A stretch of DNA of 64,000 nt from Candidatus Peribacteria bacterium. GTDB taxonomy: Bacteria > Patescibacteriota > Gracilibacteria > Peribacterales > Peribacteraceae. Both the position numbers and the translations under genes were made by a program. Shown piece after piece: positions 14,307 to 37,135 of this stretch. The notes beneath the pieces are model-generated. The model had not been told where the DNA came from, did no database searches, and saw only the letters and a list, made by a program, of their open reading frames with translations. The stretch lies in contig JBEPVF010000004.1 of NCBI GenBank assembly GCA_041691135.1, positions 29,833-93,832 of the forward strand. Reading direction: 5' to 3'. Every line of letters begins with the position of its first letter. Positions within the stretch are counted from its first letter, which is position 1.

Positions 14307-14324
14307 ATCCAATGAACTCTCAAA

Positions 14325-14352
14325 ACGTCCTTCTGCCGGAGGGACGTTTTTT
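14325..14352 (+). terminator. intrinsic terminator after nusA
   Basis: AACGTCC...GGGACGT stem followed by TTTTTT, 19 nt after the nusA stop. Confidence 0.7.
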
Positions 14353-14492
14353 AAATATTCTTCGGTCACCTCTGTCATTTTAATTCTTAGAGTTGCCACG
14401 CGACAAAATGTGCATCGCTGCCAAGCGCAACTGTTTGGGAAAATAGCGAGAACAGCTTAACATTCATGCATCTATTTCTTGCTGTCCATCGT

Positions 14493-15008
14493 ATGAAGAA
14501 AGCAAATCAGTCCGCGTTTCAACTGCATATTTTTTCGCACCTCGGTCACGGGTTCACCCTCATCGAACTCCTCCTGGTGATCGGCATCATCGCCATCCTC
14601 GCGAGTATCGTCATCGTCGCCATCAACCCCACCAAACAGTTGGGTGATGCACGCAACGCCCAGCGTCGTTCGGATGTGAACACCCTTTTGAATGCAATTT
14701 ATCAATACGAAATCGACCGCAGCGGCGCCCTGCCGAATGCCAACATCCCGACGACCGCAGCGACAGCGAAGACCATCTGTCAGTCGACGACGGATGATGC
14801 CACCTGCGCCGGTGTGTCCATTGGCGGCATCACGCTCCGCTCTCTCACTGGTACATACATTGTGTCTGTCCCGAAGGACCCGTCCCTCACGTCCGCCCAG
14901 ACAGCCACCGGCACTCGCTACAGCATCTGGCGCGATCCGGTGAACAGCCGTCTGACGATCACCGCAACGACAACGGATCGTGCCGTACCAATCAGCGCAT
15001 CACGGTAG
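14493..15008 (+). CDS. type IV pilin (major-pilin-like), copy A
   Basis: Prepilin leader ending [27 protein letters not shown] (class III signal with Glu5). Near-identical to the product of 23265-23759. The track ORF begins 27 nt upstream; the ATG at 14493 gives a 20-aa leader. Confidence 0.85.
   Translation: MKKANQSAFQLHIFSHLGHGFTLIELLLVIGIIAILASIVIVAINPTKQLGDARNAQRRSDVNTLLNAIYQYEIDRSGALPNANIPTTAATAKTICQSTTDDATCAGVSIGGITLRSLTGTYIVSVPKDPSLTSAQTATGTRYSIWRDPVNSRLTITATTTDRAVPISASR
14550..15008. repeat. inverted repeat arm A (pilin paralog), partner at 23265-23723
   Basis: Alignable with the reverse complement of 23265-23723. Block 14723-14950 is identical base for base to the reverse complement of 23323-23550. 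Confidence 0.9.
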
Positions 15009-15070
15009 ACGAAGATTAATTAGTCAGCTGCCTATCATCTTGTAGGATGACCATTGACAATGGATCATGA

Positions 15071-15718
15071 ATGCCTTTTGATAAACATACTATGAGCGAC
15101 TTGGACCGCGAATTGGATTCAGCCAAAAGAATCGCTGAACAGCTGACAGCTGCTTGTATTATTGCAGCAAAAGATGAGAAATCTGAGAGAGCAAAACATA
15201 CTGCTGACGCACTGGCGACGCTCACACACTCCATTCGTTCTGCAGTGGAAGTGGCAACCGCAGCATTGCAATATACCGAACAAAGACAAAATCCACGGCC
15301 AATTCCATCCAGCCTTACTTTCTCTGATCGATCTTCCCTTTTTCAGCAGATTGTAAATGACATCGAAATCAGAAGAGAGAATATGGGCAGAGATAAAAGT
15401 CTGGATACAAAAGCAAAGATATACAAACTGCTGGAATATATCGTCAATCATATGAGCCCGGATGGGTACATCTCACGAGAGGCAATTACGATATTTTTGG
15501 CAGGTTACGAACTGGAAGACACAGATAAGGCTACCACCGCAACCATGAGTAATTTCAAGAATCAGTACTTTGTTAATACACCGTATAGATTCGAACCACA
15601 TAGAGAAGATACAACGGAAAAGGGCCGTATCGTTGGCTATTGGTTGCGACGCGAAGGCAAACCAGTACAGCTCACAACCGAACAAAATGCCGCCGACGAG
15701 CCAGAGAAGTCTTCGTGA
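15071..15718 (+). CDS. hypothetical protein (215 aa)
   Basis: Clean ORF in a visibly AT-richer stretch. No motif recognised. Confidence 0.5.
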   Translation: MPFDKHTMSDLDRELDSAKRIAEQLTAACIIAAKDEKSERAKHTADALATLTHSIRSAVEVATAALQYTEQRQNPRPIPSSLTFSDRSSLFQQIVNDIEIRRENMGRDKSLDTKAKIYKLLEYIVNHMSPDGYISREAITIFLAGYELEDTDKATTATMSNFKNQYFVNTPYRFEPHREDTTEKGRIVGYWLRREGKPVQLTTEQNAADEPEKSS

Positions 15719-15752
15719 CGCCCCTATACAAATCACCTACCCTCACAATCAC

Positions 15753-18086
15753 ATGAAGCTTCCCTCCTTCCCCCTCGTCGTCCTCGATACCGAAACGACA
15801 GGATTTGTGCCGCGTGTGCATAAAGTGATTGAATTTGCCTCAATGCGGCTCGAGAAAGGCAAAGTGGTCGATGAATACGAAGAGCTGCTGTACGCCAAAG
15901 AAGTACCAGCGGTGGTGGAAGTGCTCACGCGCATCAAGACCGCAGATGTCGTAGGGAAACCCCCGTTCGAGGAGCGCCGCGAACGCATCATCGAAGCAAT
16001 CGGCCCGGACACGCTCATTGTGGGACAGAACGTCGGCTTCGATATTGGCATGCTCAAAGGCGAAGGAATTGATCTGAGCGATCGCCCATGGATCGACACC
16101 TCGATGCTCGCATCGCTCGTGTTTCCGGAACTCGAGAGTTACTCACTGGGATATTTGAGTTCCGTTTTAAAGTTGGATCACCATCCCGTGCACCGTGCAC
16201 TGGGTGATGTGCGTGCCACGCTCGAATTGCTCGCCAAATGCTGGGGGCGGTTGCTCGAGTTACCGGAGGATCTTCTCACCCAAGCGAAGAGCATCATGAT
16301 GCAGTCCACGCCAGGCTATCGCGCACTCTTTGACGCACTGCCTCCTGCGACGCACAAAAAACGTCCAGTGTGGCTTGATGAATGGAAGCAAACGACACGT
16401 CACGATGCGGCTACGCTGCATATGACGATTGATATTTCGCCGGCCAACGACGGAACCATCACGCTGCTGGAGGAACCGCTCGATCCGACATTTTTGAAGC
16501 AGGCAATGCATCACATGGGTGAACAAAAAGGAACGACCCACTGGCTCGCCGTCAAAAATATCGAGGCCGCGGCCAGCCGTCTGCACGGAGTGGATGACGC
16601 CATACTGCGCACGGTCTACCCACCTTTCCTCCTTCTCGACCCGACTGCCGCCGAACACCTGCTCTCACAAGAAAATTTTACCGCCGACGAAGCGACATTG
16701 GCCGTCAAGCTCCACTGGTATCAGCCGCGACTGCGCGCTGATTTTCCGCTCCATGGCGGCGAAGAAGCGGTATGGAACGGCAAGGTGACGTGCACGGCGG
16801 ATTCCTCTGAGTATCTGGATCAGTTTACAAATCCTCCGCCCATTCTGCTGCTTGATCATCGTCAACTGCTGCGCATCGTTGCGGATACCGATCGCTCGGC
16901 ATCACTTGCCAAGCCCGAGACGCTGCATATTTTGATCGACGATGCATCAATGCTGGAAGACACTGCTACCCGTGCATTTGGTTGGCTGTGCGCCATCGAC
17001 GATATCCGCGCGGCGGCCGAAGGAAATCCTGTTCTGACCAAGTTCCTCGATGTCTTGCAGCTGTGGATCGAGAAAGTGCGCACAGGCCATGATTTGCATT
17101 ACCTGACCGAACAGAATCTCGGCAGCCCCGATGCACGCGGCCTACGTGAACAACTCGCATCAATCATCGCCGAACAATCGTTCTCGCCACAGATCCATCA
17201 GCACCTCGATTGTCTGGCAAAAGTCCTGGACCCGCACAATCTGCACGGACGCATCGTGTGGATCGAATTACGCCAGAATGGCAGTCAGTTGCTCCATGCC
17301 GCACCCGAACACGTCGGAGCGATGCTCAAGACGGCGCTATTCGACATCTATCGCACGACTCTGCTGATTCCTTCGAATCTGGCAGACACGCTGCAGGAAG
17401 TCCTGCCACCGGCAGCCAAAACCACCATCCGCACGCCAATCTCCAAAACACCCTGCCTGTTAGATATTTCGTTCGTTGCCGAACCTCCACTCGACGCACT
17501 CCTCACCGAACCACCCAGTGGAAAAACCATCATCCTTCTCTCCTCCAAAGGCACTATCGAAAATTTGTACGTAAAATACGCCGAAGAGCTGGAAGAACGT
17601 GGCATTACGCTTATCTGCCAGGGTGTCAGTGGCGGCCAGGGGCGCATGCAGGCCGAGTTCATCGCCGCGCACACGCCGGCAATCTGGTTGCTCACTCCGT
17701 GGACATTCGAAGGCATTGAACTTCCGCCGCACTCCGTCGAACACCTGGTTCTGCACACACTCCCATTCGATCATCCATCGCATCCCGTGCTGAGCAAGCG
17801 TGCGCAGCGCTACAAGAACTCTTTCACTGATTACATGCTTCCACGGCTCACGCAGCGTTTGTTTCGCCTGTTGCGCGCCTATTGCCGCATGCGGACTGCC
17901 GATGGCGACGTGCGTATTCTGGACGAACGACTGCACAGCAAAGCGTATGGCAAGACACTCAAGAAATATCTGAGCTCGTTCACAGCGACAGGAGCGACCG
18001 AAGAGAATCAAACCATTCAAGGGACTCAAAAGAGTCACGAGAAAAAGACAGGCAAGAAAGATGCAGATCAGTTGAAACTATTTTGA
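15753..18086 (+). CDS. dinG: DinG-like protein: DnaQ-type 3'-5' exonuclease fused to a degenerate DinG/XPD helicase scaffold
   Basis: Exo motifs VVLDTETTGF (ExoI), GQNVGFDIGML (ExoII) and HRALGDVRAT (ExoIII). C-terminal Helicase_C_2-like block GKTIILLSSKG...LLTPWTFEGIELP...LPFDHPSHPV. The ATG at 15753 is in frame with the track ORF and follows the stop of the previous gene. Confidence 0.75.
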   Translation: MKLPSFPLVVLDTETTGFVPRVHKVIEFASMRLEKGKVVDEYEELLYAKEVPAVVEVLTRIKTADVVGKPPFEERRERIIEAIGPDTLIVGQNVGFDIGMLKGEGIDLSDRPWIDTSMLASLVFPELESYSLGYLSSVLKLDHHPVHRALGDVRATLELLAKCWGRLLELPEDLLTQAKSIMMQSTPGYRALFDALPPATHKKRPVWLDEWKQTTRHDAATLHMTIDISPANDGTITLLEEPLDPTFLKQAMHHMGEQKGTTHWLAVKNIEAAASRLHGVDDAILRTVYPPFLLLDPTAAEHLLSQENFTADEATLAVKLHWYQPRLRADFPLHGGEEAVWNGKVTCTADSSEYLDQFTNPPPILLLDHRQLLRIVADTDRSASLAKPETLHILIDDASMLEDTATRAFGWLCAIDDIRAAAEGNPVLTKFLDVLQLWIEKVRTGHDLHYLTEQNLGSPDARGLREQLASIIAEQSFSPQIHQHLDCLAKVLDPHNLHGRIVWIELRQNGSQLLHAAPEHVGAMLKTALFDIYRTTLLIPSNLADTLQEVLPPAAKTTIRTPISKTPCLLDISFVAEPPLDALLTEPPSGKTIILLSSKGTIENLYVKYAEELEERGITLICQGVSGGQGRMQAEFIAAHTPAIWLLTPWTFEGIELPPHSVEHLVLHTLPFDHPSHPVLSKRAQRYKNSFTDYMLPRLTQRLFRLLRAYCRMRTADGDVRILDERLHSKAYGKTLKKYLSSFTATGATEENQTIQGTQKSHEKKTGKKDADQLKLF

Positions 18087-18108
18087 ACTCCCACTTCAAA
18101 CCTATTCC

Positions 18109-19503
18109 CTAGTCTGCCCCCTGTCTTCCGATCACCACGAACAACGTCCGCCACAACACCCACAAATCCAATGGAATCGACCACTCTTCGATGTACTGCA
18201 GGTCCAACCGCACTTCGTCTTCGAACTTCAGGTCTGATCGTCCTGCTACTTGAGCGAGCCCGGTAATGCCGGGTTTGACGGCAAATACCCGGCGCTGCTC
18301 CTGGCGATAATATTGCACTTCTTCCAGCAGATGCGGCCGCGGGCCGACCAGCGACATCTGTCCTACGAGAACATTGAAAAGTTGCGGTAACTCGTCGAGC
18401 GACCAGCGTCGCAGCACGCGACCTACGCGCGTCACACGCGGATCGTTCTTAATTTTGAACAACGGCCCGTCCCGCCGATGGTTGAGCTGTGTCAGTTCTT
18501 CTTTGCGTATATCCGCATCGCGCACCATCGACCGGAACTTAATCACACGAACCATACTGCGGCCGTACTGGCCCACCCGGCGCGATTGATAGAAGATCGG
18601 CCAGCCACTATCGATCAGAATGAAGATGGAAATGAGAAGCAGTACCGGCGATAAAATAACCAGCAGAAGAGCGCTCATACACAAATCGAACGTCCGTTTA
18701 AGAATACGTCCCCATCCATCCAGCGGCGTCGGCCGGAACCGCATGAGCGGCAGGAGTCCGAGCCGATCCACCTCGAGCATATGCGGCACATCAGCCAGTA
18801 CCGGTGGCAAAAAACCATAACCGATATGATGATTGCGGCAGTATTCGATGAGCGCAATCGTGCCGTCACTCTGCGGTGTGGGATCCGTTTGCAGAACCAG
18901 ATCCAGTTCACGCTGCAGCGCCATGCGTTGCAATCCGGCCAGATCACTCACGTGCCCCAGATACGCATAATGATAATCCATCGTGAGCGTCTCGCGGGCC
19001 AGGCCCTGCAGCGGTTTCGCTCCCACCGAGAGAACCGTGACGCGCCCGATGCCCAGCGTGAGCAGGGAACGTTGCAGAAGTAACAGTGACGCGCGGGCCA
19101 GACCGACGAAGAGAATGATGAACACCGTGCCGTGCATGAGCAGGACACGCGAGAAAAAGAGCTGTTTGAGCACCAGGAAGTACCATGCAATCACCAGCCC
19201 CACCCAGAACAGCGCCGCCACCATGATGCGCCCGGCCTCGGCCCACGCGCCGAATGTCGTGCGCAGTGTGTAGAGCCCAAGAAAAGCGGACAAGATGAGA
19301 TACGTCAGCATTCCTGGAATGACAAACGTCGACAGATAATAGCTGATCGGCGGAAGCGAGTGAGCCGGATCGAGCAACTGGATGCCGGGCACCAAATCGA
19401 CATTGGCCTCGCGCAACCGATAGCTGAGCAGGAGCGATGCGGCCACCGCCAACGCATCCACGGGCAACCGGACCACCCCGAAGACTGCTTCGGATTTCTT
19501 CAT
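18109..19503 (-). CDS. undecaprenyl-phosphate sugar phosphotransferase (WbaP/EpsB-type 'bacterial sugar transferase')
   Basis: Multi-TM N-terminus followed by KRTFDLCMSALLLVILSPVLL...PIFYQSRRVGQYG..IKFRSM...DELPQLFNVLVGQMSLVGPRP. Confidence 0.85.
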   Translation of the reverse strand: MKKSEAVFGVVRLPVDALAVAASLLLSYRLREANVDLVPGIQLLDPAHSLPPISYYLSTFVIPGMLTYLILSAFLGLYTLRTTFGAWAEAGRIMVAALFWVGLVIAWYFLVLKQLFFSRVLLMHGTVFIILFVGLARASLLLLQRSLLTLGIGRVTVLSVGAKPLQGLARETLTMDYHYAYLGHVSDLAGLQRMALQRELDLVLQTDPTPQSDGTIALIEYCRNHHIGYGFLPPVLADVPHMLEVDRLGLLPLMRFRPTPLDGWGRILKRTFDLCMSALLLVILSPVLLLISIFILIDSGWPIFYQSRRVGQYGRSMVRVIKFRSMVRDADIRKEELTQLNHRRDGPLFKIKNDPRVTRVGRVLRRWSLDELPQLFNVLVGQMSLVGPRPHLLEEVQYYRQEQRRVFAVKPGITGLAQVAGRSDLKFEDEVRLDLQYIEEWSIPLDLWVLWRTLFVVIGRQGAD

Positions 19504-19576
19504 GCGGGTAGTGTACTACGGGAAATGGCGAAAGACCGCATGGGAATGGCAATTGACCGGCTGTCGCCAAAAATTC

Positions 19577-19945
19577 CTACAGATACTCCATTACTTTATC
19601 CGCCACCTCCTCAATTCCCATCAAATTCTTGATCAAATACTCTTTAACGCCCGCTTCCATACACCGCGCACGGAATTCGTCATTCTGGTAGTGCGTAAGA
19701 ACGAGAACTGGAAATTCATATTTTTGGACGCGCAAATGCTCAAGAACACCAAAGCCATCCTCTTTCGGCATGCGCAGATCGAGAACCATGATGTGCGGCT
19801 GTTCACGATCGATGATCTGCATTGCATCTTGGCCGTCTTCCGCAATCAGCAATTCGACATTGTCGTGATTTCTCCGCTCAAATTCAAATGCCAGTAACTT
19901 CTGGAACACGATGTCGTCATCAGCAATCAGGATGCGTTTGCGCAT
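19577..19945 (-). CDS. single-domain response regulator (CheY-like receiver)
   Basis: MRKRILIADDD..., phospho-acceptor context IMVLDLRMPKEDGF, VLVLTHY and the conserved Lys region. The longer track ORF would run through the tRNA gene, so the ATG at 19945 is used. Confidence 0.85.
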   Translation of the reverse strand: MRKRILIADDDIVFQKLLAFEFERRNHDNVELLIAEDGQDAMQIIDREQPHIMVLDLRMPKEDGFGVLEHLRVQKYEFPVLVLTHYQNDEFRARCMEAGVKEYLIKNLMGIEEVADKVMEYL

Positions 19946-20036
19946 AAATGAACGGGGACAGGTAAGCCTCCAGTATAGCAAAAATAGGAGAATGCTCAAC
20001 CACGTACTGTGGTGACTGCACCACAGACGCTTTACA

Positions 20037-20111
20037 TGGAGCCGCTTCGGGGACTTGAACCCCGGACCCACCGCTTACAAGGCGGTTGCTCTACCACTGA
20101 GCTAAAGCGGC
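20037..20111 (-). tRNA. tRNA-Thr (anticodon UGU), CCA encoded
   Basis: Reverse complement folds as a cloverleaf: GCCGCTT/AAGCGGC acceptor, GCTC-AGTGGTA-GAGC D arm, ACCGC-CTTGTAA-GCGGT anticodon arm (TGT) and CGGGG-TTCAAGT-CCCCG T arm, followed by TCCA. Confidence 0.9.
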
Positions 20112-20273
20112 ATAAGACCTATTTACTATGCTCTGCCACTGTCTGTCCACCGGAGCCAAGCGGCGAAGGTGGAAGCTAAAGCGGCAGACGGTATGTCTGC
20201 TATCAATTCTGACTGAAGTATCAATTATCGATTCTCAATTATCAATTCAAAAGCCCTCAAGTCCTCATATTGC

Positions 20274-20301
20274 TTGATAGCATTACAATTCGGCCTATAC
20301 T
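20274..20301 (+). promoter_or_regulatory. sigma70-type promoter of rnpB
   Basis: TTGATA (20274-20279), a 16-nt spacer, then TATACT (20296-20301), placed 5-6 nt before the predicted P1 5' strand. Confidence 0.6.
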
Positions 20302-20302
20302 C

Positions 20303-20705
20303 CCTTTCCTGCTCTTTCGATGATCGCCCTTTAGCGACGCTTGCGTCTGCTACGGGGAGGAACGTCCGGGCACTACTGGAACGCCCTATGGGTAACACCC
20401 ATCCACGTGTCATATATCAAGTAAAGGCGCGTGAGGACCAGTGCCACAGAGACGAGTCCCTTCAGTGGGAAGTGAAACGCCTCGGAGTACCGAGGATTGC
20501 GGCTTGCCGCGATAGGTAAACTCTGGGTAGTGCAAGGAGGAATTGGGCGGAAGGACCCGATGATGGTTCCGTCATCCCGTCCGCGCCTCCGCATTGAGGT
20601 GATGAGCAATCATTGCCCCAGAGAGATGATCATCCATCATGCAGAACACGCTGACGCGTGAACTACGTGACCGACAGAACCCGGCGTATGAAAGGGCAGG
20701 ACAAA
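20303..20705 (+). ncRNA. rnpB: RNase P RNA, bacterial type A
   Basis: Conserved blocks: GGGAGGAACGTCCGGGCAC (P4 5' strand), GTGCCACAGAGACGAG, GGTAAACTCTGGGTAGTGCAAGG and GACAGAACCCGGCGTATG (P4 3' strand). P1 pairing is TCCTGCTCTTTC (20307-20318) with GAAAGGGCAGGA (20690-20701). Ends are approximate. Confidence 0.9.
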
Positions 20706-20707
20706 GA

Positions 20708-20732
20708 ACAGGAATACGATTTCCTGTTTTTT
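20708..20732 (+). terminator. intrinsic terminator after rnpB
   Basis: ACAGGAA-TACGAT-TTCCTGT followed by TTTTT. It faces the 3' end of the convergent histidine kinase gene. Confidence 0.7.
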
Positions 20733-20745
20733 AGTACCTTCAAAT

Positions 20746-23049
20746 TTACTTCTGGCCACCTTGTCCTGGGTCTGTCGAAGGACTGGCCATTGTCTTCTGG
20801 TCACTCGTCAACGGTAGTGTGACTGTGAACACCGTTCCCTTCCCTTCGGTACTGACGAAGGAAATCGTTCCGCCGAGGCTCTCGATAGTCCGCTTGGCGA
20901 TGTAGAGACCCAAACCGGTCCCATCCGTATCTTTTTGGCGAATATTATGTGCACGGAAGAAACGTTCGAATATGCGCTTCTGTTCGCTGGCAGGAATGCC
21001 CATGCCATGGTCTTCCACGGTGATGGCAAGTCCCGTCGGATTGACTGCCAAGGAGACATGGATCTCGCTGCCTGCATTGGAGTACTTTACGGCGTTGGCA
21101 ACCAGATTCTGCAGCACGACTTCCAACAGAACCGGATCCGTCGACAAGGGGGTCGGTTGTTCCGGCAAAGACATAGTAAGGCGAATAGTCGCCGCTTGTG
21201 CCATCGATTCGTTATCGTGCACGATACGCGTGAGGAACGCATTTACATCGATTTGCTGCGCTTCGCCTGCGGCATAATTCCCTTCTTCCAAACGTGCCGC
21301 CCGCAGCAATCCGTCAAGAACGCTAGCCATACGGGCCGAGGAAGCGGAGATCTCTTTGATGAATGCCTTTTGTTCCTCGGAGAGTGCGCCGTTCTCTTCG
21401 CCCATCAGCTCCAGGTTCCACCGCACGGCCGACAGCGGTGTGCGCAGTTGATGCGATGCGAGCGTGATGAATTCCGACTTCATGTAATCAATCTGACGAT
21501 CCTCGGTCATATCCTGGAACATGACGATGGCTCCCAATAGCTTCTGATCCATCAACAGCGGCGTGACGGTCAGTACAACCGGCAACAGCGTCTGATCTTT
21601 CTTGAGCAGACTGAGATGCATGAACGAATTGCTGTGATAGCTCTTCTGGTTGGCAAGCGCTACGGTGACCGGATGAGTGGCCGGTGCTTCTTCGACGTGA
21701 CGCTGAGAGATATGCAACATATCGGTTGCAGCCTTGCCATGGAACTCCTCAGCGCTGAAGCCAAGCAGTTTTAACGCAGCTGGATTTGTATCGGTGATGA
21801 TGCCCTGCGTATCGATCGTCAACACGCCCGACTCGATACTGTCGAGAATGGCGCGATCAAGTGCCGATTCTTTCTCCAGATCCGCCGTGCGCTCGGCCAC
21901 AAGTTCTTCCAGGTGATCGTAGGTTTTTTTGAGACGCGATGTGAGATCGGCAATGACGCGATCGAGTACTTCGACTTCATCGCCCGTATGCACCGAACGA
22001 CCGAACGACCAGTGGCCGGGTTTGAGCAGATGCAATCGGGATGACACCCGCAGCAGAGGAGCAGTGAGGGACGTGGCCAGAAAGAATCCGATAATACCGG
22101 CGCAGATCATGAGCAGAATGCTGATCACGAACAGCTGTGTGGCGAACGTACTCACGCCGACCAGCGCCGTTTCACGGTCAATGGCGACTACCATGCCCCA
22201 TCCCAACGACGGGATGAAACGGTAAGCTGTCAGAACCGATGTTCCTGCCGAATTGATGATCTTCTGCTGACCTTCGTTGCCGGCAATGGCACGATTGAGC
22301 AGAGTGGCTTCGGCCGATTTCTGATTCGGCGCACCGAGCGAAAAAGAATGCAGATTGTCTTTCTCCAGCGAATGATGCAGGAGAGAAACATCTCCCATTA
22401 CGATGCGGCCGAGTACGATCTCGGTTCCATCATCGATTCCCATTGTACCAAACACATGCGTCAGCAACGGCGTGGCATCGTAGCGAAGCGCCAGCGTACC
22501 GATATCATTATGTGCATTGTCGTGAATCGATGCATATACATCATATCCACGCCATGTCCCAATATCGTCGACAAACGGCACCAACGTAGTTGCGCCAACG
22601 ACCGAAGGCACCGCACTGGTGAGTCCGACACTGGTGAGCAGGTGTTGATGGGTATCGAATACACTGATGCCAAGCAATGGTATGCCGTTTGCGCGTTGCT
22701 GTTCCAAAATGCGCGCTGCATCGGACTGACCCGCTGTTTGCATTAAGGCACGCACCTCCGGCCGATCAGCCAAAAACGCACTGCGCTCACGATCGTATTG
22801 CAGATTGGATTCCAAAATATCCTTACGCGCACTTGCCATCGCCGAAATTTGTTCAAGCATTCGGTCGGCAAGCAATGTTCGCGCCACCAAAATTGATAAA
22901 AGTGAGATAACGGCAATCGCCAGTGCCGCTACCAGCATGGATTCACGGACAATGCGGAAACGGAGCGACTTCCGAGGCGAGAAGCCCGTCGCATTGGCAC
23001 CGGTCACGCGTTTATGAGCGGGAGGATGTTTCATGTCTGTTTTGTACAA
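20746..23049 (-). CDS. sensor histidine kinase (TM - extracytoplasmic sensor - TM - HAMP - PAS - HisKA - HATPase_c)
   Basis: Two TM segments flank a ~270-aa outside domain. H-box FITLASHQLRTPLSAV, N-box NLVANAVKYS, G-boxes EDHGMGIP and GTGLGLYI. Confidence 0.85.
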   Translation of the reverse strand: MYKTDMKHPPAHKRVTGANATGFSPRKSLRFRIVRESMLVAALAIAVISLLSILVARTLLADRMLEQISAMASARKDILESNLQYDRERSAFLADRPEVRALMQTAGQSDAARILEQQRANGIPLLGISVFDTHQHLLTSVGLTSAVPSVVGATTLVPFVDDIGTWRGYDVYASIHDNAHNDIGTLALRYDATPLLTHVFGTMGIDDGTEIVLGRIVMGDVSLLHHSLEKDNLHSFSLGAPNQKSAEATLLNRAIAGNEGQQKIINSAGTSVLTAYRFIPSLGWGMVVAIDRETALVGVSTFATQLFVISILLMICAGIIGFFLATSLTAPLLRVSSRLHLLKPGHWSFGRSVHTGDEVEVLDRVIADLTSRLKKTYDHLEELVAERTADLEKESALDRAILDSIESGVLTIDTQGIITDTNPAALKLLGFSAEEFHGKAATDMLHISQRHVEEAPATHPVTVALANQKSYHSNSFMHLSLLKKDQTLLPVVLTVTPLLMDQKLLGAIVMFQDMTEDRQIDYMKSEFITLASHQLRTPLSAVRWNLELMGEENGALSEEQKAFIKEISASSARMASVLDGLLRAARLEEGNYAAGEAQQIDVNAFLTRIVHDNESMAQAATIRLTMSLPEQPTPLSTDPVLLEVVLQNLVANAVKYSNAGSEIHVSLAVNPTGLAITVEDHGMGIPASEQKRIFERFFRAHNIRQKDTDGTGLGLYIAKRTIESLGGTISFVSTEGKGTVFTVTLPLTSDQKTMASPSTDPGQGGQK

Positions 23050-23216
23050 GAATTATAGCACAAACAGGCAAAAAGGACCAGATGACAGGAGTGGTAAAGG
23101 AAACAGGGTACTCGGCAGCTAGAATTGCCAATAAGCTCTCTATTTTTAGTAGGAAAGCTAATTTACTGATACATGCATTTTGTAGCTTATTTTTGGCATT
23201 GATTCCCGCACTACGG

Positions 23217-23243
23217 AAAAAGCCTCCCTTTGCAGAGAGGCTT
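23217..23243 (-). terminator. intrinsic terminator ending the pilus operon
   Basis: Minus-strand AAGCCTC...GAGGCTT stem followed by TTTTCC, 22 nt after the pilin B stop. Confidence 0.65.
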
Positions 23244-23264
23244 CTTCGTTATCCTTGGGTTCTC

Positions 23265-23723
23265 TTAGCGTGATGCACTGATTGCAACACCACGGTCGCT
23301 CGTTGTAGCCGTGATGGTGATGCGGCTGTTCACCGGATCGCGCCAGATGCTGTAGCGAGTGCCGGTGGCTGTCTGGGCGGACGTGAGGGACGGGTCCTTC
23401 GGGACAGACACAATGTATGTACCAGTGAGAGAGCGGAGCGTGATGCCGCCAATGGACACACCGGCGCAGGTGGCATCATCCGTCGTCGACTGACAGATGG
23501 TCTTCGCTGTCGCTGCGGTCGTCGGGATGTTGGCATTCGGCAGGGCGCCGTTGTTATCGATTGCGTATTGATACACCGCGTTCAGGATGGTGTTCACGTC
23601 CGAACGACGCTGGGCGTTGCGTGCATCACCCAACTGCTTGGTGGGGTTGATGGCGACGATGACGATACTCGCGAGAATGGCGATGATGCCGATCACGAGG
23701 AGGAGTTCGATAAGGGTGAACCC
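23265..23723. repeat. inverted repeat arm B (pilin paralog), partner at 14550-15008
   Basis: See arm A. The identical core is at 23323-23550. Confidence 0.9.
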
Positions 23724-23759
23724 TTGCGTCGACCTCCGCGATAGAAAGCGGGACTTCAT
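23265..23759 (-). CDS. type IV pilin (major-pilin-like), copy B
   Basis: Leader [39 protein letters not shown]. The mature part is about 90% identical to copy A, including an identical 76-residue core. Confidence 0.85.
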   Translation of the reverse strand: MKSRFLSRRSTQGFTLIELLLVIGIIAILASIVIVAINPTKQLGDARNAQRRSDVNTILNAVYQYAIDNNGALPNANIPTTAATAKTICQSTTDDATCAGVSIGGITLRSLTGTYIVSVPKDPSLTSAQTATGTRYSIWRDPVNSRITITATTSDRGVAISASR

Positions 23760-23990: not shown

Positions 23991-24623
23991 TCATGGCTTG
24001 CACGTGAGCGCCGCCGTACTTGTTCCGCATGCTCCGCTCGTGCAAGGATGCCATGTAAATGTGTCGGTTGTCGTACAGGCCGGAACCGCGCATCCGCACA
24101 GTCCTCCCTGCGGATCATCGTTGGGAAACAAGGTGAATGTCGTTTGGAACGTGCGCACATCGGTGGTGGATTCCAGCAATTGCACGCGCCGAGAGATCGT
24201 GAAGGTAATCGATGCACTCTGTCTTGTTGCGGATGCCGATGTATTGCGAGCGATGAGTTTGCTGACAATGACATCCGGCGTACTGATTATTTTTTCAGTC
24301 GTATGATTCACGATCACAATTTGTCCATCGCGCACCCCGATGATCGTAGGGTTGACGTCATCGGCGGAGCGCTGCAATGCAAGCACCGTTCCCGTTCCAC
24401 CGATCGACGGAGTCAGAACACGTTCGGCATCTTTGATCTGCTGCCCAAACACCTGCAATACATAATCGCCATTCCGTTGCACCGTAAAATCCGACTGTTG
24501 CCGCACCATGCTTTCGCCGGTGAACACCATGAACGGCACCAACAATCCGGCAACCAAGCCGAATACGACGATGAAGATCAGAAGTTCGATAAGTGTGACG
24601 CCACGCCTGTTGGTGGAGAGCAT
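23991..24623 (-). CDS. minor pseudopilin with Cys-rich C-terminal tail
   Basis: MLSTNRRG|VTLIELLIFIVVFGLVAGL prepilin-type N-terminus (ATG at 24623). The C-terminus CGCAVPACTTTDTFTWHPCTSGACGTSTAALTC carries 6 Cys. Confidence 0.7.
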   Translation of the reverse strand: MLSTNRRGVTLIELLIFIVVFGLVAGLLVPFMVFTGESMVRQQSDFTVQRNGDYVLQVFGQQIKDAERVLTPSIGGTGTVLALQRSADDVNPTIIGVRDGQIVIVNHTTEKIISTPDVIVSKLIARNTSASATRQSASITFTISRRVQLLESTTDVRTFQTTFTLFPNDDPQGGLCGCAVPACTTTDTFTWHPCTSGACGTSTAALTCKP

Positions 24624-24851
24624 GGATGGGATGGTAGCAGAGGGAATGTTAGAGAGGAAACTGACGTAACCGAAGTAACCGATGAGACCGAGGATTTTTA
24701 AAAAAAACGAACATAGGAAATAGCAGAGTGACCAAAAGTCATTCCGTATCAATTATTAAAAAATTTATATAGCCCTGAGACCCCCGCGTGCGATTTGCAT
24801 CGCGGCGGGGATCTCGGTAGGCAGGGACGTTTTGATGACGCCATCCTTGGC

Positions 24852-28640: not shown

Positions 28641-29051
28641 TCAGTAGTTCTGGGCAATCGTGACGTGCGCCGATCGGTCGTATGTGGTGAATATCATATC
28701 GCCGGTCACGCTCGGTTGGCCGGTGATCCGGTCAAACACGACCACCTGGATGCCGCTGGCCTGAATCGTATCGGGCATGTGGTATAACTCGTCAAAGTAC
28801 GGATTACGGGCATTGTAAGATGTACCGCGGAACAGCACGCCACTGGCCGAGAATCCCCACGCATCCGCATTCTGCCCGGACTGCGCCAACAGCCGCGCCC
28901 GCTCAATGCCCTGGCTGGCCAATTGCACGGCATTCGCCAAGTCCGACCGCAAAAGATACTGCGTATAAATAGGGACCGACATCGTCACGAGAATAACGAG
29001 AATCGCCACAATGATCAGAATTTCCAAAAGTGTGAAACCACGACGGTGCAT
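28641..29051 (-). CDS. GspH/FimT-like minor pseudopilin
   Basis: MHRRG|FTLLEILIIVAILVILVTMSVPIY..LRSDLANAVQLASQGIERAR is typical of the GspH/FimT family. ATG at 29051; the track ORF adds 32 residues. Confidence 0.7.
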   Translation of the reverse strand: MHRRGFTLLEILIIVAILVILVTMSVPIYTQYLLRSDLANAVQLASQGIERARLLAQSGQNADAWGFSASGVLFRGTSYNARNPYFDELYHMPDTIQASGIQVVVFDRITGQPSVTGDMIFTTYDRSAHVTIAQNY

Positions 29052-29147
29052 GGAAGGCAGTGTATCAAGAGAAGAAGAGCGAAGCGAATGAGAGAAAATT
29101 CCCACTGCCACAGTGGTTTCTGATAGTTGGCTTCTGGTTTTTTTCAA

Positions 29148-32100
29148 CTAGGTTTTCCCCACTGATCCGACCACGCTGTAGATCGGCACGATGATGGCGA
29201 TGGCGATAGTTCCGACGAGTCCGCCGATGAACAATAGAAGCATCGGCTCCAGAATCACCGGCAGCTTTTGTGCCGTGTCATTGGCTTTCTTCTGATAAAT
29301 ATCGGCGATTTTGAGCATGATCTTCGAGAGAGATCCCGATTTTTCGCCGGTCATCACCAGCTGCTGCACCGAGATAGGCAGTAGTCCGTTACTGCCGTGG
29401 ATGAGCTCGAAACTCTTGCCGAACGAATCACCCTGGTTGAGATGCTCGAGCAGACGGAAGTAGAAATTCCGATACGCAACGATGGGCGTCACTTCGGCCA
29501 GTGAGTTCACCGCTTCGATCAAGGGCACGCCCGCTTCGAGCAGACTGCCCAATATCACACCGAAACGAGCAATCGTCGCCTCGCGGGCCAGACGGCCGAT
29601 ACCCGGAACTCGGAATTCCATCCACTGGAATACTACTTTGAGCGGTGTAAATTTGGCCAGGATAACGATCAAAATCGCGCCTCCAATGGTACCCGGCACT
29701 ACAATAGCCGCGTACTGTGTAAATCCATTGGTAAAGGCAACCAGAAGACGTGTGACTAGCGGCAATTTCACATTGAGTGAGAACAGCACACCAATGAGGT
29801 TTGGCAGCACGAACAGACCCAGACCCATCACGATAATGAACATGAGGACGATAACGATGGCTGGATAGATCATCGCCATTTTGATTTTGCCTTTCAGGTC
29901 ATTGTCTTTCTCTTCCTGGTCGGCAAGATGTTCCATGTTTTGGGCCAGGTTACCGGCTTCCTCTCCGATGCGGATGAGCGATATGGCCTGCGGCGAAAAG
30001 AAGTGCTGCGCCTGGAGAGCCCGCCACAATGCACTGCCGCTCTCCACAGCTTCGACGACATTCTGAAGCATTTTCTTGAGCGGCCGCGGACGCGTTTCGC
30101 GCTGCAGCGTATGCAACGCATCGATCAGCGTCAGGCCGGCATTGAGCATGGTCGACAGGTTCTGAATCAGGTTGGTCCGCTCTTTGCCGAGTCCCAGGAA
30201 TTTGATGGCACCCATCAAATCGCGCAGACCTCCTTCTTTGACATGCAGAATGTCGAGGCGCTTCTTCACATTCTGTGTAATCTTCTGCGACTCAGGCGCC
30301 ACTGGCGCCTTCACCTCCGTCGATGCTTTGCGAAGATTACTCGTCGGTTGCTGCATCGCCTGCATGGCGGCTTTCTGCTCGTCCATCACTTCTTCGAGAG
30401 CCGTGGGATTGCGGATACTTTCGAGGTGCGAACTCGTCGAGAGGATTTTGCCGGGACTTTCAGCCGGTGCATCGGTCCCTGCGGCAGATTGTTCTGCGGT
30501 CCCCTGATCGGCCTGAGGTTGTGGCAATTCCGATGTCATCACAATCTGTCCCGGCTCCTGCGCGAAAGCCGAGCGGCTTCCGGCACTCGCCGTCTGCTGC
30601 TGAGGAGCTTGGCCCGAAGGAAAGAAGGTGGGGAAATTGCTGTTGAGGAACGAATGTAGCCGCATGCGAGCAGAACGCGTTTTGAGCTGACGCAACAGTT
30701 CCATGCTCAGTTCATCATCCGCTATATCCGCATCGGCAGCACCAGTGGATGCCGATTTTTTGCCTGGGAACAGTGTCGGAAGATATTTATGTAGCGCCGA
30801 ACGTGCACTGGCGGCACTTTGCCGGGACGCCGCGGGCTGCGATTCTTTTTTCTCGATCGAGCGAACGCGCGTCAGGTTGCTTGTGGCAGGGGTCGATAAT
30901 TCCTGTTGCACAGCGGATTTCTTCCGGAATAGGCGCTGCATGAAGCCCCGTTTTTCGATACCTTCTGGCGTCTTGTTTGCTGCGAATGGCGAGTCGGCGT
31001 CGAAGAACTTCGGTGCCTCTTGTGATGGCACCGTCTGCTCATTTGCAGACATTGGTTCGGTGGTTTTCGGCTGTGCCACGGGCGTCAGGTTCGACGTCAT
31101 CGACATGGCGGGACCGTTCGCTTCTGTTTGTGAATCACTCGCGGCGACCGAACTATGCGAGCGATGCAACAGTGATCGCAATCGACCGAACATTCCGGCG
31201 GACGGGGCGGGCGGAGCCTGTGTTCTAACGAGTGCCGATGCGGGGACCAGCGGTGCGTTCGCAAGCGGTGCATCACCGCGCGAAGGCATGGGAGCCGAAG
31301 CAGCAGGAGTCGTGCCAATCGGCATATCATCCTCCAGCGTTTCTTTGTCTACGTCGGACGAAAAGGTTGGTGCATTCGACGAAGCCGGTTCGGGCGGGGC
31401 CTGATCAGTGGACGAGAGCACAATAAAGTTACTTTCAAGATTCGGCGGAGCACCTACCGCCAGATCGTTTTGGGTGACCGGTGTCGGCGTCTCATTCTTC
31501 TGCTTTTTTGCGAAAAAATGAGCAAACAATCCCGGCTTCGGGAGAGACGGTACGGCAGTTGGTGCGACGGCCCGAGGGATGCGTGGCGACAAACGCGACA
31601 GAAGTCCGCCGAAAAGCGATGCGCGCTTGACGGGAGCGGACGGAATCGACGCTTCGACTTCAGTCTGAATCGCTTCGGCCAGCGCGGAATCCGACGCCAT
31701 AGTAGGTTCTTGCGCTACGGGTACAGAAACTGATCGGTTCTTATGTGATTTCACCGCAGCGGGAGCAGCTGCCGGAGATACCGGCTCTTCGGCCAATACC
31801 GACGGCGGAGCAGCTACTACCGGCGAGGTATCCTGACCGATTTCAACCGGAACAGATGTCCTGGCGGCAGGCACTTCGGGCCGAGCGCGTGATAGACCCA
31901 ACAGGCGAAGCAAACCGCTTTTGCGTTTTTGATGAGCAGAGGATGCGTGCGTCGTCAGTGTCTCTAATTTTCCCTTTTCTTTCACGGTCAGTGATCGGTG
32001 AAGTTCCTGAAGAAACTGTGATACTTCCGGATCGAGATTTTTGAGTGGCGCGGAAGCGTTTGCATCATGCGAAGAACGTCGTTCGGCATGACCGTGACGG

Positions 32101-32192
32101 CTCGTCTGATCCTGGTGTTGGGACGAAATATCCGCGCGGTTGCGCGGCCTCTGATGGTGCCTGCTGTTGAAAGGTTTATTTTTTCTGGCCAT
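29148..32192 (-). CDS. pilC: type IV pilus platform protein PilC/GspF with ~610-aa low-complexity N-terminal extension
   Basis: Residues ~615-1014 contain two T2SSF repeats with three TM helices (NLSTMLNAGLTLIDAL..., FGVILGSLLEAGVPLIEAV..., LEPMLLLFIGGLVGTIAIAIIVPIY). The upstream 610 codons are open, S/P/A/T/Q-rich, and start at an ATG overlapping the pilB stop. Confidence 0.8.
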   Translation of the reverse strand: MARKNKPFNSRHHQRPRNRADISSQHQDQTSRHGHAERRSSHDANASAPLKNLDPEVSQFLQELHRSLTVKEKGKLETLTTHASSAHQKRKSGLLRLLGLSRARPEVPAARTSVPVEIGQDTSPVVAAPPSVLAEEPVSPAAAPAAVKSHKNRSVSVPVAQEPTMASDSALAEAIQTEVEASIPSAPVKRASLFGGLLSRLSPRIPRAVAPTAVPSLPKPGLFAHFFAKKQKNETPTPVTQNDLAVGAPPNLESNFIVLSSTDQAPPEPASSNAPTFSSDVDKETLEDDMPIGTTPAASAPMPSRGDAPLANAPLVPASALVRTQAPPAPSAGMFGRLRSLLHRSHSSVAASDSQTEANGPAMSMTSNLTPVAQPKTTEPMSANEQTVPSQEAPKFFDADSPFAANKTPEGIEKRGFMQRLFRKKSAVQQELSTPATSNLTRVRSIEKKESQPAASRQSAASARSALHKYLPTLFPGKKSASTGAADADIADDELSMELLRQLKTRSARMRLHSFLNSNFPTFFPSGQAPQQQTASAGSRSAFAQEPGQIVMTSELPQPQADQGTAEQSAAGTDAPAESPGKILSTSSHLESIRNPTALEEVMDEQKAAMQAMQQPTSNLRKASTEVKAPVAPESQKITQNVKKRLDILHVKEGGLRDLMGAIKFLGLGKERTNLIQNLSTMLNAGLTLIDALHTLQRETRPRPLKKMLQNVVEAVESGSALWRALQAQHFFSPQAISLIRIGEEAGNLAQNMEHLADQEEKDNDLKGKIKMAMIYPAIVIVLMFIIVMGLGLFVLPNLIGVLFSLNVKLPLVTRLLVAFTNGFTQYAAIVVPGTIGGAILIVILAKFTPLKVVFQWMEFRVPGIGRLAREATIARFGVILGSLLEAGVPLIEAVNSLAEVTPIVAYRNFYFRLLEHLNQGDSFGKSFELIHGSNGLLPISVQQLVMTGEKSGSLSKIMLKIADIYQKKANDTAQKLPVILEPMLLLFIGGLVGTIAIAIIVPIYSVVGSVGKT

Positions 32193-33981
32193 GGGTCATG
32201 GTGACAAGAAGTTCGGGTGGAGCAGCGACACGCATGAGCTCCTCAATGGTGGTCATGCCTGACTTCACTTTATCGAATCCATCGTCGAACAGGTTCTTGA
32301 GTCCCTGCTTGCGGGCGAGGTTGTTCAAATCGGTTGCCGACGCTCGGGAAATGATGAGCTGTTCCATTTCGGGCGTAATGACGAGCAGTTCGTAGATACC
32401 GACGCGTCCGCGATAGCCGGTGCCTCCGCATGAATCACATCCCTTTCCTCTGTACAAACGTACCGTATCTTTTTCAGTGAAATATGCATCCGCACCCGGG
32501 AAGAGTTTGTGAGCATCGGCAACCGAAATCGAGTAACTGAAGCGACACTGCGAACAGATGCGGCGGATCAGACGTTGGCCGATCACCACTTCCAGTGTGG
32601 AGGCAAGCAGGAACGGTTCGACCCCCATTTCGAGCAAGCGCGGCACGGCGGTGGCCGCGTCGTTGGCATGGAGCGTGGAGAACAGAAGGTGTCCGGTGAG
32701 CGCGGCGTTCACTGAAATGGCTGCCGTTTCTCCGTCACGAATTTCTCCGACCAGAATGATGTTCGGGTCTTGGCGCACCAGAGCGCGCAAACCTTTGGCG
32801 AATGTGAGGTCGGTATCGGGATTCACTTGGATATGGTTGATACCGGGAATTTTGTATTCCACCGGATCTTCGATGGTGGAAATATTTACATCGGGGTGAT
32901 TGCGCATTTTGAGCAGCGCATACAAAGTCGTCGATTTTCCAGAACCGGTTGGTCCGGTCGTCAGGATCATGCCGAACGGCTTGTGAGCGACACGCTCCAG
33001 CACAGCCCGGTATTCCTCAGAGAAGCCCAAATCCTGCAACGTGAGCGTACGTACGTATTCTGACAAAAGACGAAGCACAATTTTCTCGCCGTCCACGACC
33101 GGCACGATCGAGACACGGATGTCCATCGTATTGCCGTTCGGGGTTTCGTAACGAATGGCACCGTCTTGTGCAGCATAATGCTCGTCGATCTTCATGTTGC
33201 CAGCGATCTTGATGCGGTTGACGACTCCTTCGTAGTACTCCTTTGGAATGCGTCCCGCTTCGTGCATCACGCCGTCCACGCGGAAGCGGACGATGATGAT
33301 TTTCTCCTGCGGTTCGAAGTGGATGTCTGATGCGCGCAATTCGATGGCGTCATTGAAAATTTCTTCGATGATTTCGGGCGCCACTTTGCGCTGCTGATCG
33401 ATGATCGCCTGGAAACGTGTGGCGAGCGGTTTGCGGTAGTGCACGAACAGTGAGTCGACGACGTTCTTCGGCGCATAGATGAACTGAATGGCGCCCATCC
33501 ACTTGGCACGCTCCTGCTTTTTGGCAGTCGAGAACGAGAACGATGATTTTTCTTTCTTCGTATCCTTCTTGCGCTTCGCCTCTTCTTCTTCAGCCGGATA
33601 CTCAGGCAACGTCTGATCGACATTCAGACGCATCGCTTCCTCAAGCAACGGATTTCCCGGATCGGCCGTGGCGATGGAGATCTGATCCGGTGACGGACGA
33701 GCGACAATGATGGCGCTGTACGCACGTGCAATTTCTTCGGGCATCATTCCCACCAGTTCCGATGACGGCGGCGTGGAGTGGATGTTGAAGAACGGCAGAC
33801 CGTAGTATTCGGCCAGCGCGCTTTCGAACAGTTCCTGCGACAGCAAGCCCTGTTCCAGCAGCACGTTCTTCAGCGGCACTTTGCGTTCCTGCGCTTGCTC
33901 ATTGGCATGCTGAAATTCCTCTTCGCTCAGGTAACTTTGTTCGACGAGTATTTTGCCGAGTTCGGTATCCTGGAGTGACAT
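32176..33981 (-). CDS. pilB: type IV pilus assembly ATPase PilB/GspE
   Basis: T2SSE_N domain, Walker A GPTGSGKST, Walker B ILVGEIRD, His box TGHLLFSTLHAND and tetracysteine CSQC...CDSCGGTGYRGR. Confidence 0.95.
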   Translation of the reverse strand: MSLQDTELGKILVEQSYLSEEEFQHANEQAQERKVPLKNVLLEQGLLSQELFESALAEYYGLPFFNIHSTPPSSELVGMMPEEIARAYSAIIVARPSPDQISIATADPGNPLLEEAMRLNVDQTLPEYPAEEEEAKRKKDTKKEKSSFSFSTAKKQERAKWMGAIQFIYAPKNVVDSLFVHYRKPLATRFQAIIDQQRKVAPEIIEEIFNDAIELRASDIHFEPQEKIIIVRFRVDGVMHEAGRIPKEYYEGVVNRIKIAGNMKIDEHYAAQDGAIRYETPNGNTMDIRVSIVPVVDGEKIVLRLLSEYVRTLTLQDLGFSEEYRAVLERVAHKPFGMILTTGPTGSGKSTTLYALLKMRNHPDVNISTIEDPVEYKIPGINHIQVNPDTDLTFAKGLRALVRQDPNIILVGEIRDGETAAISVNAALTGHLLFSTLHANDAATAVPRLLEMGVEPFLLASTLEVVIGQRLIRRICSQCRFSYSISVADAHKLFPGADAYFTEKDTVRLYRGKGCDSCGGTGYRGRVGIYELLVITPEMEQLIISRASATDLNNLARKQGLKNLFDDGFDKVKSGMTTIEELMRVAAPPELLVTMTHGQKK

Positions 33982-36535: not shown

Positions 36536-37135
36536 TCAGGAAAGACTGCGCCGCCCCGCGATTGCTTCGCGCAAGGTGGTTTGATCGGCGAATTCGATGT
36601 CGGCGCCCATCGGCAATCCGTGCGCAAGACGCGTGATTTTTGGAACGTACTGCTGCAATTGATTTCGCAAATATGTCGCCGTCGCCTCGCCTTCGATATC
36701 CGGATTCGTCGCAATGATGATCTCGTCGGCACCGCCATCCTTTACGCGCTGCACCAGTTCACGCAATTTGAGCTGTTCTGGCCCCATACCGTCGATAGGT
36801 GAGAGAACACCGTGAAGCACGTGGTACACGCCTTTATAGCCCGACTTTTCGAATGCCAGTACATCGAGTGGATCTTCGACCACCAGAATCATCTTGTGGT
36901 CCCGACCGCCGTTGCGACAGATATCGCACATCTCTTCGGTCGTCACCATCTGGCAATTGCTGCAGTAGTGCAATTGTTCCTTGAGCGTCAGGAGCGCGCG
37001 GCCAAGCCCTTCGGGCGATGCTTTGGAACTGCGCAGTAGATGGAACGTTAAGCGTTCGGCCGATTTCGATCCGATGCCGGGAAGTTTGGAAAACTCTTCG
37101 ATCGTTTTCTGAATTTGAGGAGGCAGGAGTGACAT
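36536..37135 (-). CDS. recR: recombination protein RecR
   Basis: HhH (LPGIGSKSAERL), C4 zinc finger (CSNCQMVTTEEMCDIC) and a Toprim domain (ILVVEDPLDVLAFEKSG). Confidence 0.95.
   Translation of the reverse strand: MSLLPPQIQKTIEEFSKLPGIGSKSAERLTFHLLRSSKASPEGLGRALLTLKEQLHYCSNCQMVTTEEMCDICRNGGRDHKMILVVEDPLDVLAFEKSGYKGVYHVLHGVLSPIDGMGPEQLKLRELVQRVKDGGADEIIIATNPDIEGEATATYLRNQLQQYVPKITRLAHGLPMGADIEFADQTTLREAIAGRRSLS

Follow-up and report, generated by a model that had tools for sequence, protein, structure and literature searches.

Partial homogenisation, probably by gene conversion, of two inverted pilin paralogs in a Candidatus Peribacteria genome

Introduction

Dispersed bacterial paralogs can evolve in concert through intragenomic gene conversion, with tufA and tufB in Salmonella and the rRNA operons as examples. 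In such families, RecA-type non-reciprocal recombination maintains identity over tracts of a few hundred bases between copies that are dispersed and, in many cases, inverted. The converted tracts end abruptly, their flanks are diverged, and a crossover occasionally inverts the intervening segment as a by-product. Here, we describe two type IV pilin genes, pilin A and pilin B, which lie in inverted orientation 8.3 kb apart and share a perfectly identical core inside otherwise diverged sequence. They are located in a 64-kb window (the whole stretch of DNA that was analysed; all positions refer to it) on one assembled contig from the genome of an uncultured member of Candidatus Peribacteria, a lineage within the candidate phyla radiation (CPR).

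Pilin genes are also known to be reshuffled by DNA inversion. At the tfpQ/tfpI locus of Moraxella bovis and Moraxella lacunata, an invertible segment of about 2 kb moves the 3' coding parts of pilins onto a fixed 5' part. This inversion is site-specific and involves one promoter and one expressed gene, and it requires the invertase Piv, whose gene is nearby. In Neisseria, recombination between pilin loci can rearrange the chromosome (PMC3454330), and in the FF region of yeast a flip/flop polymorphism can be maintained by inverted paralogs that have been homogenised (PMC9731477). CPR pilins are abundant and probably matter for the interaction with hosts, and a central part in host attachment and DNA uptake is ascribed to the type IV pili of these organisms (PMC6744442). 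In the literature, we found no paper that describes pilin gene conversion in CPR.

Mosaic structure of the two pilin genes

A repeat search of the window located an inverted repeat with arms at 14547-15007 and 23266-23726, which are 461 nt long, 92% complementary and 8258 nt apart. The first arm belongs to pilin A (14493-15008, plus strand), a dispersed and apparently lineage-specific paralog, and the second to pilin B (23265-23759, minus strand), a major pilin of 164 aa. Both proteins have a class III signal and the prepilin N-terminal methylation motif, with a short basic leader that ends in Gly, Phe at +1, Glu at +5 and a hydrophobic N-terminal helix of about 20 residues, and both match the Pfam N_methyl family (PF07963) above its cut-off, with E-values of 1.3e-5 for pilin A and 1.8e-7 for pilin B.

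A base-by-base comparison of the arms gave 35 mismatches over the 461 nt, arranged as a mosaic of four blocks. The N-terminal block (14547-14684, plus strand; partner 23589-23726) encodes helix alpha1-N and the start of alpha1-C. It contains 6 mismatches, and all 5 codon differences between the two genes in this block are synonymous. At the end of helix alpha1 follows a diverged patch, termed patch 1 here (14685-14722, plus strand; partner 23551-23588), in which 12 of 38 nt are mismatched. This patch reads LLNAIYQYEIDRS in pilin A and ILNAVYQYAIDNN in pilin B, the latter being the family consensus. The core (14723-14950, plus strand; partner 23323-23550), which codes for the alpha-beta loop, the Cys-Cys loop and the central strands, has no mismatch in 228 nt; the perfect block is of exactly this length, with bounding mismatches at 14722 and 14951. 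The 3' tail (14951-15007, plus strand; partner 23266-23322) encodes the last two strands and is again diverged, with 17 of 57 nt mismatched and 4 amino-acid differences. At the protein level, the mature pilins differ at 9 of 152 residues, five of them in patch 1 and four in the tail; of the codon differences, 4 are synonymous in patch 1 and 10 are synonymous in the tail.

The original prediction, made from the letters of the window, had described a 228-nt core at 14723-14950 matching the reverse complement of 23323-23550 base for base, diverged patches on both sides of it, and unrelated leaders and upstream regions. The core match is exact, and the mismatches do concentrate in the two flanking patches. 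Pairwise comparison of the two loci detected no similarity upstream of 14547 or downstream of 15007, and the leader peptides, MKKANQSAFQLHIFSHLGHG in pilin A and MKSRFLSRRSTQG in pilin B, are unrelated. A pairwise alignment had been proposed as a check; in it, mismatches are not spread evenly through the core, where there are none.

The clustering was evaluated by shuffling the mismatch positions 100,000 times. An identical run of at least 228 nt arose in none of the 100,000 permutations, in which the longest run had a mean of 52 and a maximum of 160. When only third codon positions were considered, the observed run covered 77 codons, compared to a permutation maximum of 66. The run thus stands out as an identical fragment of the GENECONV type, lying beyond the permutation range and spanning about 70 core sites that differ from each ortholog.

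Evidence for gene conversion between old paralogs

Block-wise identities were calculated from a codon alignment of pilin A, pilin B and two orthologs of pilin B from the closest relatives (loci L001 and L002, contigs of 4-5 kb from fragmented metagenome-assembled genomes, MAGs). The two closest MAGs are GCA_964618035.1 and GCA_964632375.1. In patch 1, A and B are 69% identical, A and the orthologs 64-67%, and B and the orthologs 80-82%. In the tail, the corresponding values are 70%, 72% and 77-79%. In these two blocks pilin A is no closer to B than to the orthologs of B, and the duplication would therefore be old. In the core, A and B are 100% identical, and each of them shares about 69% with the orthologs. 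In the N-terminal block, identity is 96.3% between A and B, 87-89% between A and the orthologs, and 86-88% between B and the orthologs.

A family conservation profile computed across 38 homologs ranks the core as the least conserved block (mean conservation 0.62). The hypervariable Cys-Cys loop falls within it, and the orthologs in L001 and L002 differ from each other in this loop in both sequence and length. Patch 1 is among the most conserved blocks (0.94), and there B fits the consensus and A departs from it at 5 residues. Purifying selection was ruled out as the cause of the core identity, because synonymous sites are identical as well and the block is the least conserved of the family; such identity in the fastest-evolving part of the protein calls for recent copying and is not attainable by selection on the protein. 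Protein constraint alone does not give nucleotide identity, since two control paralog pairs (L006/L007 and L014/L016), which encode the same protein in the N-terminal block, carry evenly scattered synonymous mismatches. Because A and B exceed the ortholog identity in the N-terminal block and the mismatches of the control pairs are scattered, this block is most likely an older conversion tract.

On these comparisons, we consider it likely that pilins A and B are old paralogs that have been partly homogenised by recent gene conversion. Gene conversion had also been preferred to a recent whole-gene duplication in the original prediction, and the distances bear this out: in the patches A is as far from B as from the orthologs of B, yet the core is identical. 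Non-reciprocal homologous recombination would have overwritten parts of one pilin copy with the other at least twice. The older tract would be represented by the N-terminal helix (14547-14684), now 96% identical, and a very recent one, of exactly 228 nt, by the variable globular domain (14723-14950). Strand exchange in homologous recombination needs near-identity, so the tracts may end abruptly at patch 1 and at the 3' tail because the sequences there are too diverged for it. The outcome would be two almost identical mature pilins produced from separate transcription units. We infer a recombination pathway of the RecA/RecFOR type, as well as the direction of transfer and the expression of both pilin copies. 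RecR is encoded in the window (36536-37135, minus strand; Pfam RecR domains); it is a component of the RecFOR pathway of homologous recombination, by which the conversion could be carried out.

Some observations weigh against this interpretation. The direction of transfer and the number of events are not readable from two sequences. At the protein level, the tail of A (TTTDRAVPISASR) fits the tail of L002 better than the tail of B does; the synonymous sites of the tail point the opposite way, and 57 nt are too short to resolve the matter. The two copies are known from a single assembled contig, and the fragmented state of the L001 and L002 MAGs means that absence of an A-type copy there is not proven.

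Pilin A might instead have arisen recently by duplication of that part of pilin B which encodes the mature protein, with patches that diverged later by import of foreign DNA (e.g., through transformation) or by locally accelerated evolution. We regard this as unlikely. The homology does run exactly from the mature N-terminus to the stop codon, the high identity of the N-terminal block (96%) and the core (100%) would follow directly, and a pilin pair at loci L011 and L015 is 98% identical over the same extent. However, homology limited to the constrained mature region is also expected of old paralogs with decayed flanks, and the patches are about 30% diverged, including the many synonymous sites counted above. 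A donor with the patch 1 of pilin A (NAIYQYEI) was not found in a peptide scan of genome and metagenome sequences, and conversion tracts that end at old divergence are a more parsimonious account than two short imports placed exactly on either side of a perfect block. It is very unlikely that the pattern is an assembly artefact, in which a short-read assembler would have partly collapsed the copies or joined them chimerically, making the identity or the orientation unreal. Such an error is conceivable in a metagenome-type contig, as typical k-mers are shorter than a 228-nt repeat, an assembler may pass through an inverted repeat in either way, and the assemblies of the relatives break near the pilin, as the short contigs of L001 and L002 illustrate. 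Nevertheless, isolated single-base differences are retained in the adjacent N-terminal block, which indicates that near-identical sequence was not collapsed, and the assembled orientation agrees with the synteny of relatives. Moreover, patch 1 and the tail of B are ortholog-like at synonymous sites, as expected for a non-chimeric B, and similar tracts are present in independent assemblies.

Conversion-like tracts in related loci

The related loci come almost exclusively from Peribacteria MAGs, and several of the 59 paralog pairs surveyed in them share long perfect tracts. The tandem pairs of L003, L145, L093 and L060 have 100%-identical 5' blocks of about 165-345 nt, which end abruptly at the variable domain, and the tandem paralogs of L028 form a near-complete mosaic. 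Tandem paralogs with a constant 5' and a variable 3' part were observed in L003, L028, L060, L093, L145 and L148, and this architecture appears to be maintained by recombination.

A dispersed pair, L011/L015 (L011 10001-10438, L015 10001-10435), is located on two contigs of one MAG (CAYRGC) and shares a perfect tract of 374 nt. The tract starts at the mature N-terminus, the leaders differ, and the mismatches cluster in the last 60 nt; an independent genome thus shows the same pattern as the window. The second copy of this pair has Ala, not Gly, at leader position -1 (RSRSA before FTLIELL) and lies just downstream of an OmpR-type response regulator/histidine kinase pair. Orthology of L015 and L016, with one pair homogenised and the other not, was tried as a direct conversion test, which failed as the two share no flanking similarity.

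Because similar perfect tracts recur in relatives, conversion between paralogs looks like a general feature of the Peribacteria pilin family. Most relatives have their identical block in the 5' constant region and differ in the variable domains, whereas in the window identity falls on the variable domain and the difference on a short stretch of normally invariant helix. The window is unusual in two ways only: its copies are inverted and 8.3 kb apart, and it is the variable domain that has been homogenised.

Orientation of the intervening segment

The segment between the pilins (15009-23264, 8.3 kb) extends from the open reading frame (ORF) hyp215 to a histidine kinase. The genes that the original prediction had listed in it were confirmed by Pfam domains for four proteins, along with tRNA-Thr and RNase P RNA. 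They comprise a dinG-like exonuclease-helicase (about 15753-18086, plus strand; RNase_T and Helicase_C_2), a sugar transferase (18109-19503, minus strand; Bac_transf), a receiver-only response regulator (about 19577-19945, minus strand; Pfam) and the histidine kinase (20746-23049, minus strand; PAS/HisKA/HATPase). The RNA genes are tRNA-Thr(TGT) (20037-20111, minus strand; tRNA search) and rnpB for a class A RNase P RNA (20308-20704, plus strand; RNA search).

For synteny, sixteen window proteins were placed on 163 related loci. The conserved order in relatives is PilB-like ATPase, minor pilins, pilX253, one to three tandem major pilins, histidine kinase and sugar transferase, and it continues on the opposite strand with the dinG-like gene and nusA. 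Gene order and relative orientations in the window are the same as in every related Peribacteria locus that spans the segment, and neither an opposite-strand pilin nor an inverted pilin pair occurs in the 163 related loci. Judged by this synteny, the 8.3-kb segment is in its ancestral orientation.

The pilin genes are convergent; if a crossover took place in the core, both 3' tails would be inverted along with 15009-23264. In the original prediction, this flip was put forward as a possible mechanism of pilin variation. The geometry is correct, but the variation mechanism is without support: the orientation is ancestral, and neither a recombinase among the major ORFs of the window nor a chimeric allele in the 90% protein cluster was found. 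The comparison of synteny and pilin allele structure in relatives, which had been suggested as a check, speaks against it as well, with the same order in all related loci that span the segment.

A programmed or recurrent flip-flop would nonetheless be a competing explanation for the core identity. Homologous crossover in the core would repeatedly invert the 8.3-kb segment and thereby change which 3' tails and downstream operons are joined to the pilin 5' modules and promoters. This would act as a variation mechanism, and the conversion would arise as a side effect of the recombination. Convergent genes with a 228-bp perfect inverted repeat allow it, the yeast paralogs (PMC9731477) and the Neisseria pilin loci (PMC3454330) introduced above offer precedents, and in L085, a short contig of another lineage, nusA is likewise followed directly by a pilin. 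Yet the order and orientation of the segment are those of all related loci that span it, and the inverted pair has no counterpart in the 163 related loci. Pfam scans covered about 40 ORFs across the window, among them all sizeable ones within and near the 8.3-kb segment, and detected no recombinase, invertase, integrase or transposase. The 90% protein cluster contains just the two parental alleles and no chimera, and inversion would not switch anything on or off, since each pilin gene has its upstream region outside the segment. The payoff of an inversion would also be small, because the hypervariable Cys-Cys loop is inside the identical core; four mature pilins are possible, and the differences between them amount to no more than 9 of 152 residues, none of them in that loop, so that recombinants could hardly be told apart. 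This explanation is therefore quite unlikely. A more specific version, namely a recombinase-independent flip-flop in a CPR episymbiont, in which a RecA crossover in the core recurrently inverts the 8.3-kb block and conversion renews the substrate, seems very unlikely to us. If true, it would re-pair modules of promoter, leader and helix with the histidine kinase/response regulator unit versus the ORFan/dinG-like unit. In this very unlikely version, pilin A might owe its position to a tandem pilin pair that was once inverted and later re-inverted. On general grounds, occasional RecA-type inversion across the 228-bp perfect repeat is plausible as a roughly neutral by-product.

Further sequences from the same species were sought in public data, as a test for alternative orientations or chimeric alleles. 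Exact look-ups of both pilins found no contig, and a 26-mer from the core had no match in metagenome contigs. Protein-based scans yielded nothing closer than 81% amino-acid identity in genome contigs and 63% in metagenome contigs, and no same-species DNA was found in public metagenomes.

Two established kinds of pilin variation system were considered and rejected. A site-specific invertase system was discarded as no recombinase was found among the major ORFs of the window. A silent-cassette system was discarded as a sensitive blastn search with both pilins finds only two full-length genes in the window, and the variable regions of these two are identical, unlike those of alternative silent-cassette donors.

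Some gene boundaries in the segment need adjustment. The mechanical ORFs at 19577-20071 (minus strand) and 15570-18086 (plus strand) extend too far at the 5' end. That of the response regulator runs into the tRNA gene, and its true start is likely the ATG near 19945, which gives the 122 aa also found in L002. For the dinG-like gene, a start near 15753 (MKLPSFPLVVLDTETTG) is probable, and the gene would then not overlap hyp215. The tRNA-Thr(TGT) and rnpB genes (20037-20704) are situated between the response regulator and the histidine kinase, and DNA similarity to this rnpB/tRNA region is also present in L001 and L002, downstream of their kinase.

Pilin A and its low-GC insertion

Pilin A has 171 aa when translated from the ATG at 14493; the public gene call starts at the ATG at 14466 and gives 180 aa. 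The gene is located between nusA and the dinG-like gene, in an insertion at about 14307-15750 with a GC content of 0.43-0.44, compared to 0.54, and it adjoins the ORFan hyp215. The DNA flanking pilin A has no match in any related locus, and no pilin is present between nusA and the dinG-like gene in any of the 32 loci that reach that far, in which the gap measures 70-1055 nt. Pilin A is thus a presumptive lineage-specific addition.

A terminator-like hairpin with a T run (14328-14352, plus strand; terminator scan) is present just after nusA. Because of this hairpin, pilin A would need its own promoter, which may lie in the AT-rich region 14353-14492 (GC 0.43). A promoter scan gave no sigma-70 consensus match upstream of pilin A or pilin B on the relevant strands.

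The second ORF of the insertion, hyp215 (15071-15718, plus strand; GC 0.44), is an intact ORFan ORF of 215 codons. It has no Pfam match, no homolog among 5.8 billion proteins and no similarity in related loci. It is a putative gene.

In L085 (Ga0068855_100356714, 1-1610), which derives from a rhizosphere metagenome and another Peribacteria lineage, a canonical major pilin, oriented like pilin A, lies 143 nt downstream of nusA. This 1.6-kb contig stops 90 nt past the pilin, too early to show an inverted or rearranged state of the cluster in that lineage.

Pilin B and the pilus gene cluster

The position of pilin B, with a minor pilin, the pilin and a histidine kinase in this order, is the same in L001, L002 and dozens of Peribacteria loci, and its closest homologs, P0002 and P0003, hold the same syntenic place. 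The leader of pilin B and about 100 nt upstream of it are 77-79% conserved with L001 and L002. This synteny and the conserved leader and upstream region identify pilin B as the presumptive ancestral major pilin of a conserved pilus cluster. Named members of the pilin family are annotated as "type II secretion system protein / PilA" of Candidatus Peribacteria or Peribacteraceae. In an AlphaFold2 (AF2) model (pLDDT 81), a helix at residues 16-68 is followed by a small sheet of four short strands. A Foldseek search of the PDB with this model ranked PilA1 of C. difficile and PilE1 of S. sanguinis, both monoderm pilins, best, with non-significant E-values of at least 0.75. A profile search of PDB sequences gave pilin matches in the N-terminal helix (E 1.6e-7 to 5e-5).

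The window also encodes three further prepilin-type genes, and the partners required for a type IV pilus (prepilin peptidase, assembly ATPase and platform protein) are all present in it. The minor-pilin-like gene pilX253 (23991-24752, minus strand; Pfam N_methyl) lies directly upstream of pilin B and is a conserved neighbour of the major pilin across Peribacteria. A minor pilin (28641-29147), a PilC-like T2SSF platform protein (29148-32192), a PilB-like T2SSE ATPase (32176-33981) and the prepilin peptidase PilD (Peptidase_A24; 37955-38734), all on the minus strand, were assigned by Pfam. The PilC-like protein is unusually long (1014 aa), with C-terminal T2SSF domains and an N-terminal region of about 650 residues that has no Pfam match.

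A prepilin-type gene of the DUF1559 family (PF07596; 24852-25811, minus strand) is situated inside the pilus cluster, between g640 and pilX253. It has a homolog in none of the 163 related Peribacteria loci. Its closest named relatives, with 40-46% identity, belong to Isosphaeraceae, Paludisphaera, Singulisphaera and Tundrisphaera (Planctomycetota), and its best match, P0122, shares a 10-kb contig with a subtilase and a PALP enzyme, a setting other than that of the Peribacteria pilus genes. It looks as if a planctomycete pseudopilin had been transferred horizontally into a CPR pilus locus.

Comparison with known systems

Gene conversion of this kind would mean that Peribacteria pilin paralogs evolve in concert, dispersed copies included. 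This matters for the reading of pilin diversity, for pilin phylogenies and for MAG assembly, as MAG contigs tend to break, or can be mis-joined, at such pilin repeats. The finding is a small, undocumented addition to known biology and involves no new mechanism.

The Moraxella inversion system differs from the window in several respects. Here, there is no recombinase among the major ORFs, both pilin genes are complete, and the 8.3-kb segment holds housekeeping genes. The sap S-layer system of Campylobacter fetus and the yeast FF region resemble the window in that homologous recombination between homogenised inverted paralogs flips DNA. In C. fetus, a single promoter lies inside the invertible segment, and inversion changes the expressed gene; in the window, by contrast, both upstream regions are placed outside the segment, and the alternative orientation is not observed in related loci.

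The pilE/pilS system of Neisseria likewise involves the type IV pilin family and non-reciprocal transfer of variable regions between copies. It differs in having many promoterless, 5'-truncated silent cassettes whose variable regions are unlike that of the expressed gene, and conversion from them creates diversity. The window has two full-length genes and no other pilin fragment in 64 kb, and the conversion would have removed diversity of the variable region.

By analogy, the closest known process appears to be the concerted evolution of dispersed bacterial paralogs by gene conversion. The case is one of ordinary concerted evolution, and a DNA-flipping switch is not demonstrated. Compared to the tufA/tufB type, the window stands apart in that the copies have unrelated leader peptides and that homogenisation affects the fast-evolving variable domain of a CPR surface-filament subunit.

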